From Syntrophales bacterium (GTDB lineage: Bacteria; Desulfobacterota; Syntrophia; Syntrophales; PHBD01), in contig OY764159.1 in assembly GCA_963668175.1 (NCBI GenBank), positions 3,328,001 to 3,392,000 on the forward strand: a stretch of 64,000 nucleotides of DNA. The letters are read 5' to 3'. Below the pieces are notes generated by a model that was given only the letters and a program-made list of their open reading frames with translations, was not told the origin of the DNA and ran no database searches. A program made the position numbers and the translations under genes. Positions 7,547 to 63,755 of this stretch are shown here, in pieces (position 1 is the stretch's first letter; each line of letters opens with the position of its first letter).

Positions 7547-7673
7547 GATCTTCATCGCCGTCAACATCGTCTACGGGGATATGGTCTAACGCACGGAAAA
7601 GCCCCGCCAGTCGCCGATAACCGGCTGTCTTCAGCCGCGTCGCCAAGGGGCAACGACAGACACAGGCTTCAAC

Positions 7674-8573
7674 ATGCTGAGAATCTATCATATAAGCGAT
7701 CTTCACTTCAGCAAGAAAGAGAGCGACAATGACGGCGCCAGAATTCTGCTGCACAGGATCGCCCGGGTGTTCAATGCCCAATCCGGCTGCGGCGATTACC
7801 TTCTTGTCACCGGCGACATCACGGACACGGGCTCCCGGGTGGAATACTTCCTGGCCCTCGAGGCCCTCATGCCTTTCCGCGGCCGGATATTCGTCGTTCC
7901 CGGCGATCACGATTACGGCGGGCTTCTGGGCTCGAACTTCGACGAAATCAAAGCGAAACGTTTCGATACGCCTTTTGCCGAAGCTCTCGGCGTGGACCAC
8001 GCCTTCTTCGACAAATTCAACGTGATCGAAAACGGCTATGCGCCGTATACACGGGAACTGGATGACGGCAGCGGCACGAAAGTCCTGCTCATCGGCCTCA
8101 ACTCGTGCAGAAACGAGGGCATCCTTGATTTTGCCCAGGGAGGGATAGGCCGGCAGCAGCTTTTCAACCTGGACCGCATCCTTAGCGACCATACGCTGCG
8201 AGACGTACCGAAAATTCTTTTTCTCCATCACATTCCCATCAAGCACGCACGATTTCCCAATGTCATGACGCTGACGGACTGGGAGGCATTGATGCGCACG
8301 ATCGACGACCGCGTCGAAGTGATCGCCTTCGGCCATCAGGGCTACGAAGAAGACAACGGCGCATGGCTGAAGGCAAGCCGCAATATGTATGCTGCGGAAA
8401 GGGCGTCAGCCAAAGGAAAGCGTTTCCTGCTCGATGCCAACAGTTCGGTCTACGAACAATCCTGCTATCTTGTCACCTTCGATCGCGATACTGTAAGCGC
8501 TGAAATCATGGTCATGGGACCGCCCCTGGCAGAAAGCGATGAGCCTTTATTCGTGAGGGAGAGTGCCTTCTAG
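7674..8573 (+). CDS. Calcineurin-like metallophosphoesterase (paralogue 1)
   Basis: SDLH, TGDITD, PGDHD, LHH and FGHQG motifs. Confidence 0.88.
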   Translation: MLRIYHISDLHFSKKESDNDGARILLHRIARVFNAQSGCGDYLLVTGDITDTGSRVEYFLALEALMPFRGRIFVVPGDHDYGGLLGSNFDEIKAKRFDTPFAEALGVDHAFFDKFNVIENGYAPYTRELDDGSGTKVLLIGLNSCRNEGILDFAQGGIGRQQLFNLDRILSDHTLRDVPKILFLHHIPIKHARFPNVMTLTDWEALMRTIDDRVEVIAFGHQGYEEDNGAWLKASRNMYAAERASAKGKRFLLDANSSVYEQSCYLVTFDRDTVSAEIMVMGPPLAESDEPLFVRESAF

Positions 8574-59179: not shown

Positions 59180-59534
59180 GGGGGCGTCACGGTTTCGACG
59201 GGGATAGTTGAAGCTGTAGAAGCGTACCGAGGTTCCTACAGGCCTCGTTAAACAGGTAGGAAAATCATAATCGCAAACGATTACGAATACGCCTTAGCCG
59301 CTTAGTCGGCTAACGTCCTCCCGGCTTTGTCCGTTGGGCCGGATGAGGGCGTCATTTAGACGGAATAACCGATTCCCCTCGCCTGGCGGGGATGAGGCGA
59401 AAACCTTACAGGCTAGCGACGGTTGAATCCTGCCCCTGGGAGCCTTCCGGAGCGAAATTAAATCAGGGAATACGTACGTAGAAACTGCAGTGGAATGTTT
59501 TCGGACGCGGGTTCGACTCCCGCCGCCTCCACCA
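59180..59534 (+). ncRNA. ssrA: tmRNA
   Basis: 5' GGGGGCG...GGTTTCGAC and 3' GGTTCGACTCCCGCCGCCTCCACCA; tag ORF ANDYEYALAA* at 59273-59305. Confidence 0.97.
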
Positions 59535-59540
59535 TAATAC

Positions 59541-60692
59541 TTAATTATTATCAGCAATTACATTATTATTTTCTACCGCAACGCTACCGCAATTTTCCAT
59601 GCCCTGCTGGTGTGGCATCTGATAACCGGGTCGCCGCATACTCAACACCTGCCCTATCCTTTTTGACGTCCTCTTTGCGTATCGTTTGGTCATCTCTGAT
59701 GTTTTATGCCTTAAAACGGCTTGCACAAAGGACTCATCTTTTCCTTCATCGAGCAGTTGGCACCCCAACGAGTGTCGGACGGCATTGTATAGTTTAATTC
59801 TTATTCCTGCTTTTCCACAGGCCTCATGCCATACCTTATTAAGATTCTTGTTTGTATAGGGCTTTCCATCTTCTCGGACGAATAGAAACGGTCCTGTGTG
59901 TTTTGGCAGGTTATCAAGAATCTCCTTTGCATACGGTGTTAGTTCCAGCTCTCCCACTTCGCCCGTTTTTGTCTTTTCATTTAGATCATTGTCCGAAAAG
60001 GCACGTTTAATATAAACTTTCCCATTTTTCACAGCGTCTTTTTTGATTGCTCGGACTTCTCCAATCCTAGGTCCATATTCCATTGCAAATCGGAAGATAT
60101 AAACATCCCTTGTCGGGACATGGGATAGCACGAGCTCTTGCTGTTCCATGGTCAGGTATTCAATCTCCGATGGTTTCGGCATACTCATCTTCGGAAAAGG
60201 GGGAACTCGTTTGATCTCTTCATTTGAGAAAGCCCACCTTACCATTGTTTTTAAGGCACCGAGTTTATTGTACGCGCCTTTTTCTTCTAACTTATTTTTA
60301 AGAAATTGTTGATATAAAACCAGCTCGGCTTTCCGAAATTTTCTAATATCCTTATCGGCTCCGAAATAGGGGATTGCATAATTGACGATACAAGTTTTGT
60401 AATCACGTTTGCATTTCTTGCCAGCGTCGCATTGTACAAGCCAAGTCTTGTAATATTCGCCTAGACTTAGTGGATTGCTGGGACGGAATGTACGTGGGTC
60501 AAATGCTTCCGGATCTCTATCGATATCTTCCTGAATGGCGGCCAGGAGCTTCTTGCCGTTTTCGTAATGTTTGATCGGGTGCCATTGGCCCTGAATGAGT
60601 ACCGACCAAAACTTTTCGATGGTACCCTTCCAATACAACTGGACAAAAAAGCGATTACCGTGCTTTTGGACGGTCCCGCGAGTAAAACCCAT
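59541..60692 (-). CDS. Tyrosine recombinase/integrase
   Basis: GPRIGE, KTKT, LYNAVRHS and LRHK...TKRYA catalytic motifs. The start MGFTRG was chosen from a GGAGG RBS and promoter; the ORF extends to 60788. Confidence 0.93.
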   Translation of the reverse strand: MGFTRGTVQKHGNRFFVQLYWKGTIEKFWSVLIQGQWHPIKHYENGKKLLAAIQEDIDRDPEAFDPRTFRPSNPLSLGEYYKTWLVQCDAGKKCKRDYKTCIVNYAIPYFGADKDIRKFRKAELVLYQQFLKNKLEEKGAYNKLGALKTMVRWAFSNEEIKRVPPFPKMSMPKPSEIEYLTMEQQELVLSHVPTRDVYIFRFAMEYGPRIGEVRAIKKDAVKNGKVYIKRAFSDNDLNEKTKTGEVGELELTPYAKEILDNLPKHTGPFLFVREDGKPYTNKNLNKVWHEACGKAGIRIKLYNAVRHSLGCQLLDEGKDESFVQAVLRHKTSEMTKRYAKRTSKRIGQVLSMRRPGYQMPHQQGMENCGSVAVENNNVIADNN

Positions 60693-60711
60693 GACATGCC
60701 CTCCAGCTGGG

Positions 60712-60740
60712 TTTATACGGATATTATCCGAAACTGTCAA
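60712..60740 (-). promoter_or_regulatory. Integrase promoter with palindromic spacer
   Basis: TTGACA-17-TATAAA; CGGATA-N-TATCCG at 60718-60730. Confidence 0.7.
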
Positions 60741-60840
60741 GGCCTTGGGCTGCTCTCTGACTTCCCCTGTCGATTGAATCGGCTCCATTAATTTATCCCT
60801 CTACCCATATATCCACGGGGTGTCGCCCTCTGGAGGCAAA

Positions 60841-61040
60841 AAAAGTGAACTTTTTTTCATATAATTTTTTTTTAAGTGTGATTTTGGACAGAAAGACGAG
60901 TTAAAAATTTTTTAAGTGGCTTTTTGCAGGATAATTATTTTTTAAGTGCGCTTTTGGGCCAAAAGTCGATTTAAATATTTTTTATCTGACGTTTTTGCGT
61001 TTTTTGAAAAATTAAGTGGCGTTTTTGCGAATAATGAAAA
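60841..61040. repeat. AT-rich phased 30/40-bp repeats (TTTAAGTG...TTTTG)
   Basis: Units start at 60871, 60911, 60941, 60981 and 61011, with a degenerate unit at 60841. Confidence 0.75.
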
Positions 61041-61177
61041 TGGGCTCTTAAGGGCCGTTTTGTGACACGCATAATATAGTTTATTATACTTACTAGCTGT
61101 GTGACACCTCAGAACCCCCTTTCATCCCCTTCGATGATGCCCATCATCCCTGGGGATGACACCCGTCTTCGTCTCCC

Positions 61178-62510
61178 CTCAAGTTCGACCCATAGCCTCC
61201 GTTCCTACCGCCCCTCCGGGTCAGTTTTGCCGGTACGGTCGGCTGCCCTCTGCCTTGGCAGTCCGGTCAGCAGTCCGACCCCTGGTCTTTACCTCAGATC
61301 CGACACAAGCCCTACTCAGCTCCGACCCCACCACTCCCCTGCCCACCCCCAGGGTTTAAGGCTCGCCGCCTCTGGTTCGACCCGGGGTTTGGGGCGCTGA
61401 CAGGCAAGCGGGAGCGGCCTTTTGAAGCGCCTTAGGATGCTCCCCGCCCGGCGGGATAGCCGGGCTCGTCTTGGACAGCCTGCCGGATGGCTCCATAACC
61501 ACCGGAGGTCACAAACCGGAGGTGCCTGATTTCAGGTCCGATCTCAGGTCCGACTACAGGGCGAACAGGTCCTGAAGCCACCAAGGGTGGTCGAATGGAT
61601 CTTGAGCGCCGGATGGGCGACGACCGGAAAAGGCCTGCGAAGCCTAAGGGCAGCCCACAAGGCAACCTGAGGTGAAGCTGGCCCCGAGGGAGGAGCTAGC
61701 GAGACCGGAAGGCGCTTGAGGGGGCCCTGGCGGCTCAGCCGCAGGCTTAGCCAAAGGGACCCGGAAAGCGCCTGGATGTCGGAAGCGGACGGGGATAATG
61801 CTTCTCAGACCGACAGCATGGCGGATGCTCCATAACCGCCGCAGGCGCCTGTAAAACACAGAAACTCCAGTCCGACACCTGTGCCCCTGGCCAGGTCGTG
61901 ACCAGCACCTCGGCGAAGTTAGCCTCGGGAATCGTCATCAGAACCTCGCCGAAGTGAACCGGACGGCTTGGGTGACTGCCTGGTCTCAGACCGACCCGGC
62001 CTGCATGTCTGCCTGCACACTGGCAGCATGTCTGGCCAACTAGCTCAGCTCCGACAGCCACTCTCGCCGGACTGGGAGAGGTGTAACCTCGGATAGCCGG
62101 GCGAGGAACGGGAGAAGTACCGGACCTGAGAGGTAGGGGTGCCAGCGCAGCGAACCCAGGGGCGAAGGTCCAGGACTTCGGGCTGGGGGGGTTGGCCTGC
62201 AGAATCGAGGTGCAGCCGAGGTGAGGCAGGCCGTGTCGAAGGCCCCCTGGATTGAGATTCGACACTGTCTCAGGCAATCTCAGGGTGACACACACTCAGG
62301 TCGATTTCAGGTCCGACTCCAGGTTTCAGGCGGCGCTGGCGGGGACAGAAACCTGATGCCTGATCTCAGGTCCGATCTCAGGTCCGACCCACCAGCCCGG
62401 CGAAGTGCTCCGCCTCGATCGCGGATCAAGATCTACGATCGGGATCGGCGATTGACAGGAGCTCGGAGACCGGTCAGGCCTGCCGGAGGGATAACACCCT
62501 CAGGTCCGAC
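61178..62510 (+). repeat. Dispersed and tandem 12-bp motif (C/T)TCAGGTCCGA(C/T)
   Basis: Six exact copies, about ten variants and one inverted copy. Confidence 0.8.
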
Positions 62511-63614
62511 ACGAGCCGAGGGGTGGCCACCGACAAGTATTGCGAGTCCTGGCCGGGAAGGTAACATAACGATGTGTTATGTTTAGCTGAGAGAGGGCAT
62601 CTTGCCGTTACCGGATCTGCCAGCGGCAGCAAGACATGTTGGATAAGGCGCCTTATCTGACATGCCGAATGAAGCGACTTCCCGCATGGCGAGCAAATTG
62701 CCCAGGGGCACGCACATTTTCAGAGTCCAGGGTGCCCCCCGCCCCACTGCCCCAACAAACGACACCCCGAGGCGATCGCTGTACCCACCACCCACCAGCA
62801 TGGCGAAGGGATTCCGGCCCCTTACGTGGCAACAGGAAGCATGGGGGCTCGCTCTGCACGCCCCCCTCGCACCGGCTTGCCACGTTAGTCCGCCCGGCGC
62901 ACTTGCAGTCCCGATACACGAGGGCGGCAGGGTCTGCCAGCGTGGCGGAAGGCCGCCGGCCGCGGCCGGCGCCGGGAGTGCCCGGCGGCGTTGCCGTGAC
63001 CAGGCCGGACCAGGACCGATGCGGGAAACGCAGAGAAAAGCCGGGATGCAGTGGGTGTGATGTGTGTATGTGTATTAATAAGTATATAAATATATTAACT
63101 AATTCAACTAAGATATAAAGAGAGAAAAGATATATATAGACCCTGAAGACGGCCCTGAAAAGGGCGGGGTGGTCGAACGCACGGATTGGGAAAACGAGGA
63201 CAAGCGTGTGACACCGTGAGCACGACCTCATGCTGACGGAAATCGCCCACTTGTGGGGGCATGGCCGAACGCACGGAAGGGGAATTGAGACGCGGTCGTC
63301 ATCCGTACCGGGAGGAATTCAGATGTGACCCGGGGGGGATCTTTTGAGAAAATTCACCTCTCTCGAAACTCCTAGGCGGAAGATTTATGGATGAAACATG
63401 CAATCTTGGGAGGGATATTTTCCCGGTGAGAGAGGTAATCCAATTCTTCCTGTAATCAAGATCGTCCCTTTAGACATTGACGTTTAACAGTAAGGTTGGT
63501 TATCCATAATCTTCGATAAAGGTTTTGTTTAGATTTAATCATCTTGATCTCAGAATCAAAGTATGTTAACCGAAGTTGTAAATATGATCCTTACAAGCTC
63601 TTTCATAGTGAATA

Positions 63615-63755
63615 ATTTTGGTGACCCCGAGGAGGAGTAGAATAGGGAATCCCGTGTGAATCGGGAGCGGACCCGCCATTGCAAGCAGCGACGAAACCCT
63701 GCTAAGAGCTGGATGTCGGGGAACGGTTTCAAACCCCGAGTTTGAATAGTCTGCG
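63615..63755 (+). promoter_or_regulatory. Cobalamin riboswitch (3' half degenerate)
   Basis: GGTG...AATAGGGAATCCCGTGTGAATCGGGAGCGGACCCGCCATTG matches the 5' core of the B12 element. Confidence 0.7.

Follow-up and report, generated by a model that had tools for sequence, protein, structure and literature searches.

A polarised 12-nucleotide motif array in a gene-free segment of a mobile island at the tmRNA gene of a Syntrophales bacterium

A gene-free segment of ~1.9 kb was analysed in a 64,000-nucleotide stretch of the genome of a Syntrophales bacterium (assembly GCA_963668175.1, contig OY764159.1, positions 3,328,001 to 3,392,000). This stretch is called the window here, and its numbering is used unless stated otherwise. 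The segment lies in a mobile island at the transfer-messenger RNA (tmRNA) gene ssrA, and it carries an array of same-sense copies of a 12-nt motif, followed by a four-helix structured module named P1-P5. The array was real and strongly non-random. The explanation that we favour, at a probability of about 0.35, is that the segment would encode a long non-coding RNA that is structured and carries a multivalent motif. The coordinates of the features are collected in Table 1.

The motif array and its non-coding setting

Exact copies of YTCAGGTCCGAY were located at 61531, 61543, 62306, 62365, 62377 and 62499, all on the + strand, as had been listed in an initial annotation made from the sequence alone. 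The mean count in 100 dinucleotide shuffles was 0.02, and none of the shuffles reached six. Seven occurrences were found in the whole genome (4,567,304 bases), six of them in this segment, and the reversed-pattern control gave 1 and 1. The motif was thus polarised and specific to the locus, and an equal frequency in the rest of the chromosome was ruled out. With one mismatch to CTCAGGTCCGAC allowed, 28 sites were found genome-wide, and eight lay inside the 1.4-kb segment holding the array, all on the + strand. With up to two mismatches and no indels, the segment had 12 + sites and one - site (62119), compared with ~0.06 per strand expected from the genome-wide rate. Besides the six exact copies, ten sense copies differed from the motif by substitution (61178, 61293, 61315, 61370, 61865 and 62044) or by a one-base indel (61268, 61804, 61985 and 62295, read by eye from the sequence). 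Accordingly, the total was 16 sense copies and one inverted copy, in agreement with the annotation, and the inverted copy was placed at 62119-62130. It paired with the copy at 62044 in the minimum-free-energy fold.

Sub-words of the motif showed the same strand bias, with + to - counts of 6:0 for CAGGTCCGA, 9:1 for TCCGAC and 14:2 for CTCAG against 0.01-0.6 expected per strand. Further strand-biased k-mers of the segment were GGCGAAG (4:0), ACCGGA (7:1) and CCCACCA (4:0). The matches listed by a full-text literature search for CAGGTCCGA, as far as the retrieved excerpts go, were primer-type sequences from unrelated fields. The spacing between motif copies was irregular, from 11 to 261 bp. Tandem Repeats Finder reported the 12-nt doublets only, and no decayed tandem repeat of ~60 bp. 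In addition, GATC was not enriched overall (6.1 per kb in the segment vs 6.5 genome-wide), and five GATC sites clustered at 62417-62443.

The segment was non-coding. Its GC content was 60-64% over ~61097-63055, compared with 42-46% on either side, and the adjoining genes of the island were richer in AT. The spread of GC over the three codon positions was 0.01-0.13 in 61201-63000, compared with 0.28-0.63 in neighbouring host genes and 0.16-0.23 in the adjacent integrase gene. None of the six open reading frames (ORFs) of the segment contained a Pfam family, and for the largest (182 aa), none of 164 candidates was a homologue at E <= 0.001. The absence of genes was therefore borne out, and a decayed protein gene was ruled out by the codon-position GC spread, the Pfam scan and the homologue search. 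A match over 30 nt (61480-61509) to DUF3417 genes from a different genus was rejected as chance, with 8 of 11 residues agreeing and flanks that disagree.

Two block repeats reported in the annotation were real and longer than noted. The 32-bp block recurred at 97% identity and extended to 48 nt at 87.5% (61507-61554 vs 62343-62388), and GGATG(G)CTCCATAACC recurred as a 35-nt block at 86% (61474-61508 vs 61812-61845). Together, they formed one 80-nt block whose halves recurred 500 nt apart. Because the halves were repeated separately, part of the motif copy number stems from duplication. Most motif copies had nothing in common outside the 12-mer. The copies held 0-2 mismatches and detectable flank similarity was gone, which indicates constraint on the 12-mer or a sequence-specific process that generates the motif.

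The structured module and the case for an RNA

The module P1-P5 lies on the same strand just downstream of the array. Its helices are P1 (CGGGAAG/CTTCCCG), P2 (ACATAA/TTATGT), then P3/4, and P5 (CATGTTGGATAAGGC/GCCTTATCTGACATG), with the single-stranded stretches AGCTGAGAGAGGG and GCCGA. The module was conserved in five other genomes, and homologues were located in G029 and G258 (two copies each), G586 and G569. The element measured ~150-240 nt across these loci, and in G029 and G258 the repeats ran ~200 nt further 3'. RNAalifold on six sequences gave a common four-helix fold. Compensatory changes were seen at 12 of its 43 pairs, and every helix was kept in the window copy. The fold was more stable on the motif strand than on the other (-50.4 vs -39.9 kcal/mol), and a U-G pair was kept in four of the six sequences. 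P1-P5, as a predicted structure, is the strongest single item bearing on the RNA reading.

The module was rare and patchy, with a strict-pattern match in four of 339 genomes of the order, this genome included. It was absent from the viral contigs searched and matched no family in Rfam 15. At the other loci, it usually came after terminator-like hairpins, with Rhs toxin or toxin-antitoxin genes upstream, and one copy was near an integrase-primase pair. One G029 copy abutted a sub-threshold match to group II intron domains D1-D4 on the opposite strand; no group II intron match was found in the window. The array did not consist of decayed P1-P5 copies, since the nhmmer family profile saw a single copy in this genome and its next match (E = 0.016) lay elsewhere. 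P1-P5 is a candidate new structured-element family, patchy in one bacterial order and phylum.

A sigma-70-like promoter site was recognised at 61062-90 (GTGACA, 17 nt, TATACT; 10/12 to consensus), which ends seven bases before the GC block and points into the segment. The predicted transcript start (~61097-61100) falls at the AT-to-GC transition. Moreover, the segment folded more stably than expected. The two 1-kb halves had z-scores of -2.76 and -2.86, with none of 20 shuffles as stable. At 600 nt, the segment windows gave -1.25, -2.58 and -2.30, compared with +0.84, -0.17, +0.99, +1.44 and +1.65 for five coding controls of similar GC.

These features suggest the following model. The segment would be a structure-rich cargo of the island, with the array as its 5' two-thirds. 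Starting at the promoter-like site, the + strand would give rise to a long non-coding RNA, in which a 5' hairpin would be followed by 16 same-sense CUCAGGUCCGAC-type motifs and the four-helix module, with an end near the GC-rich hairpin at 62931-63011. The repeated motif may be a multivalent site on the RNA, recognised sequence-specifically by a protein or a complementary nucleic acid. A more specific version seems quite unlikely. In it, this unclassified RNA of ~1.9 kb, with its ~16 elements of 12 nt and its four-helix module, would serve as a multivalent scaffold or decoy, and its target would be a factor, encoded by the host or by a rival element, that binds nucleic acids sequence-specifically. 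If true, this would make island-borne sponge or scaffold RNAs a new class.

Several observations weigh against the RNA reading. That an RNA is made, where it would begin and end, and that a partner would bind it are what we infer. The promoter was a consensus match only, and the region held three such sites vs 1.9 expected. An intrinsic terminator was looked for at the 3' end of the segment and none was found. The - strand folded equally well (z -2.76 and -2.92), so the folding is silent on the sense of a transcript. The predicted unpaired probability was 0.39 at the 16 motif sites vs 0.37 at random 12-mers of the segment (P = 0.30), and the motif sites had no common structural context in the predicted fold. 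No Rfam family was matched in 60700-63650 (cmscan, 4227 Rfam 15 models, E <= 5); the sole match at that threshold was a chance miRNA with 20.7 bits against a gathering score of 100. P1-P5 itself may be an independent small mobile insertion that is uninformative about the array. Furthermore, searches of 41 relatives, 401 phylum genomes and 339 genomes of the order gave short matches only and no homologue of the array, and nothing beyond short pieces matched in 72,556 plasmid or 50,697 phage records. Without homologues, the array itself has no covariation support. The suggestion of a large repetitive RNA made in the initial annotation gained circumstantial support from the promoter, the terminal hairpins, the fold stability and the same-strand module, and the array remained without a homologue.

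The surroundings of related integrases were also searched. No similar segment was found at 29 loci from 22 of the 401 phylum genomes (this genome included, one locus being its own second integrase copy) and at one metagenome locus, and none turned up in viral contigs. The motif doublet occurred at 16 loci in contigs of species-representative genomes, in contexts unrelated to this locus, namely tandem 12-mers in actinobacteria and a hairpin repeat family in Acidobacteriota bins; it had no match in viral contigs. The dispersed hairpin repeat, TCAGGTCCGATTTCAGGTCCGATGCGGATCGGACCATCGGACTCC, had GTCAGG-type simple-repeat flanks in an Acidobacteriota bin (L015, L018, L021, L022) and at L013, and it had a 22-nt doublet in common with the window.

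The segment could instead be a non-functional relic, that is, decaying foreign non-coding DNA with duplicated blocks and lodged small structured mobile repeats, of which the motif copies are leftovers. The array is known from a single genome, the internal duplications of 48 and 35 nt are of this kind, and P1-P5, being patchy and sometimes present in two copies, resembles a mobile repeat. That the same 22-nt doublet sits in a dispersed hairpin repeat points in the same direction, and the cobalamin riboswitch downstream, followed by only a 70-aa ORF, hints at local decay. However, six exact and six near-exact copies persist between dissimilar flanks, where neutral decay should erode both. Moreover, all 16 copies share one orientation, the fold stability is well above that of coding controls, and the window copy of P1-P5 keeps all its helices. 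We consider a relic somewhat unlikely.

The island and the DNA-site readings

The segment lay inside an island at the tmRNA gene, as the annotation had proposed. The tmRNA encodes the tag peptide ANDYEYALAA (ARAGORN). The attL core is formed by the 3' 23 bases of the gene (59505-59527), with an exact repeat at genome 3471473-3471495, and the two bound a region of ~84 kb. The motif segment is just inside, beside the tyrosine integrase. The integrase gene looked intact, and identity to its closest relatives reached 42% in phylum genomes and 53% in a single metagenome contig. An older, diverged tmRNA 3'-end remnant was found 740 bp past the exact 23-mer, behind a BrnT/BrnA toxin-antitoxin pair, and the two successive 3'-end copies indicate tandem accretion at ssrA. 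The left-hand 50 kb of the att interval contained metabolic and regulatory genes. The right-hand 30 kb was AT-rich and mobile-looking, with HU, an MmeI-type restriction-modification enzyme, RES/Xre and AbiE toxin-antitoxin pairs, a resolvase, ThiF/JAB and Rep_3. Synteny 3' of the tmRNA was not kept in four family relatives, so the extent of the island is without empty-site confirmation. In one relative (G005, L098:465-2131), a 1.6-kb insertion with a Fic/DOC gene and no integrase lay between the tmRNA and its 3'-end repeat.

The segment was not an assembly artefact. In run X1, which may be the source sample, one Logan contig spanned 59508-64000 with no differences and even depth. Run X5 belongs to a different study and contained short contigs that match inner parts of the segment at 100% identity. 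In run X6, which carries the same species label, the tmRNA end was present and the island was not. All three runs gave DNA contigs or reads only.

Directly upstream of the Rep_3 gene lie 3.5 copies of a 22-bp iteron, ATGTCCnTTTTCGGAG. They differ from the motif, which lies ~80 kb away when the island is integrated. The motif was accordingly rejected as the Rep_3 iteron. Rep_3 and its iterons (L031:18545-19718, genome 3469545-3470721) are ~750 bp from the attR core, and an excised island may replicate as a plasmid through Rep_3. Repeats of the types (G)ATGAC(G/A)A and TGATAA also clustered in AT-rich intergenic DNA upstream of the Rep_3 region (L031:17480-17600), and they may be another binding-site array of the island.

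The initial annotation had held that the binder was not encoded nearby and that a satellite or cis-only element was involved. This did not fit the setting, in which the integrase adjoins the segment and Rep_3 with its own iterons is in the same att-bounded region. It had also advised a check of the island for Rep, primase, ParB or terminase genes, and only the first was found. By Pfam, the 87 ORFs (83 + 4) that lie across and just past the att-bounded region contained no ParA, ParB, ParR, terminase, primase or relaxase family. A partition centromere was rejected for lack of a ParA, ParB or ParR family in these ORFs, a test that proteins without a Pfam family could escape. A phage packaging site (pac/cos) was rejected because no terminase, portal or capsid family and no match to phage records or viral contigs was found. 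Hence, none of the three site classes named in the annotation (iteron, centromere, packaging site) was supported.

More broadly, the motif could act as double-stranded DNA, bound by an island- or host-encoded protein as auxiliary or copy-control iterons, as a centromere-like site, or as a titration sink for the excised, Rep_3-replicating form. The direct repeats, the tandem doublets of 11-12-bp period and the one inverted copy form a layout that resembles the iteron clusters of plasmids such as RK2. The motif is confined to the locus, adjoins the integrase and an AT-rich zone of phased repeats, and would be ~3-4 kb from the Rep_3 gene once the island is excised and circularised; several uncharacterised helix-turn-helix proteins are encoded in the att-bounded region. 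Against this, Rep_3 has typical iterons of its own that are unrelated to the motif, and no Par, terminase, primase or relaxase family was detected. Instead of forming a compact, AT-flanked cluster, the copies are scattered at uneven distances through 1.3 kb of GC-rich DNA, and the hairpin excess and the conserved structured module are left unexplained. We consider an array of DNA sites somewhat unlikely.

The copies could also be att-like, either integrase core-type sites or worn tmRNA 3' ends left by repeated integrations at ssrA. The motif CTCAGGTCCGAC agrees with the att core CGCGGGTTCGAC at 9 of 12 positions (10 of 12 for the variant at 61370), a weak comparison made post hoc. Every sense copy is oriented as the tmRNA gene, and the older 3'-end remnant after the BrnT/BrnA pair speaks for tandem accretion at the locus. 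However, the likeness stops at the 12-mer. The 14 following bases agreed with the continuation of the tmRNA at 5.56 positions, compared with 5.38 for random positions of the segment (P = 0.33), and the motif was rejected as copies of the tmRNA 3' end. In addition, six identical copies of a variant sequence are unlike independent decay, and spacings of 11-261 bp leave no room for integrated elements. This origin is highly improbable.

The 3' end of the motif, TCCGAC, fits the MmeI site TCCRAC, and the island encodes a close MmeI homologue. By the specificity code of PMC2731914, its E/N pair at MmeI positions 751/773 specifies C at position 3 of the site, its K/Q pair at 774/810 specifies C at position 4, and K-x-D at 806/808 specifies G at position 6. 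The predicted site of the homologue is NNCCAG by this code, in agreement with a published engineered variant that reads TCCCAG, and the motif was rejected as its recognition site.

A CRISPR array or mimic was rejected on the irregular spacing, and no CRISPR-like array emerged from a crude genome scan with 16-mers. The only hit of that scan was a long coding tandem repeat of 48-nt period (AEEEARLK-type, genome 4047200-4048420).

Both flanks of the GC block were AT-rich. The left zone includes a 70-nt repeat unit in two copies (76%), and its phased TTTTTTAAGTGnnnTTTTTG repeats are loosely like the Rep_3 iteron pattern GT..TTTT.GG; they could be operator or auxiliary origin sites. Downstream of the segment, a cobalamin riboswitch (63602-63720, 39.1 bits) was followed only by a 70-aa ORF without a Pfam family (63829-64041), and the next gene, on the opposite strand, encoded a chromate transporter. 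The riboswitch may be orphaned, or the ORF may encode a small B12-regulated protein.

Table 1. Features of the segment, the island and related loci. Positions are those of the window, except where a locus (L) prefix or the genome is given.
Feature	Position	Strand	Basis or detail
tmRNA gene (ssrA), integration target	59180..59534	+	Rfam RF00023, 218 bits; ARAGORN
Tyrosine integrase gene, 415 aa, pointing at the tmRNA gene	59541..60788	-	Pfam PF00589, E 3.1e-16
AT-rich zone with ~5 phased repeats TTTTTTAAGTGnnnTTTTTG, period ~30-40 bp, from integrase start to GC block	60840..61045	+	sequence; repeat families
Small terminator-like hairpin (61043-61056), then sigma-70-like promoter	61043..61090	+	consensus match
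38-nt hairpin at predicted 5' end	61122..61159	+	83% complementary
Motif array, CTCAGGTCCGAC-type, 16 same-sense copies	61178..62510	+	copy list and pattern scans
80-nt block, halves repeated separately at 61812-61845 (86%) and 62343-62388 (87.5%)	61474..61554	+	
Tandem motif doublets, 11-12-bp period	61531/61543, 62295/62306, 62365/62377	+	
Lone inverted motif copy	62119..62130	-	+ strand reads ACCGGACCTGAG
Four-helix structured module P1-P5, ~150 nt	62545..62695	+	homologues and RNAalifold
82-nt GC-rich imperfect palindrome (long hairpin) near 3' end of GC block	62931..63011	+	68% self-complementary
AT-rich right flank, in part matching the left flank imperfectly in inverted orientation (GGGCCGTYTT ... 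TTATATACTTA)	63056..63140		
MmeI homologue	L030:13149-15884 (genome 3444149-3446887)		1120 bits to PDB 5HR4
Rep_3 initiator gene	L031:18717-19718		Pfam scan
Successive tmRNA 3'-end copies	L032:473-495 (exact 23-mer), L032:1197-1235 (older)		
P1-P5 loci elsewhere	L074:6099-6334(-), 7648-7880(-); L075:5354-5523(-); L076:3382-3556(+); L077:2466-2643(+); L080:1374-1565(+)		

Comparison with known systems and meaning

The array matched no known family, and as a kind it belongs to the non-coding cargo of a mobile island. The known large RNAs GOLLD, ROOL, HEARO/omega RNA and OLE are, like the segment, GC-rich, gene-free, hairpin-rich and several hundred to ~2000 nt long, and they likewise occur in a mobile element beside an RNA-gene integration site. 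The segment differs in that it has no match in Rfam 15 (group II introns, GOLLD, ROOL, OLE and HEARO included) and no covariation support for the array. To our knowledge, an internal array of 12-nt repeats has no counterpart in these RNAs. The sponge RNAs CsrB and RsmZ also carry many same-sense short motifs on one non-coding stretch. However, their GGA motifs are in hairpin loops, whereas the motif of the array is 12 nt long, its predicted accessibility is not raised and it has no common structural context.

Iterons of the Rep_3 type are direct repeats of ~17-22 bp beside the rep gene. The array is similar to Rep_3 and RK2 iteron clusters in its irregularly clustered direct repeats of one orientation, its single inverted copy and the presence of Rep_3 in the region, but it differs in its 12-bp unit, its extent over 1.3 kb of GC-rich DNA and the separate 22-bp iterons. 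With att accretion at tRNA and tmRNA genes, the array has in common same-orientation repeats downstream of ssrA and the 9/12 likeness to the core; it differs in that the likeness ends with the 12-mer and that integrated elements would not fit in its spacings.

As the array is an orphan in one genome, the weight of the finding is limited. If it is a functional RNA or a site array, the segment would be a protein-less cargo of an integrative element. It would then offer a window on the use of multivalent nucleic-acid motifs by such islands, for example in the titration of factors.

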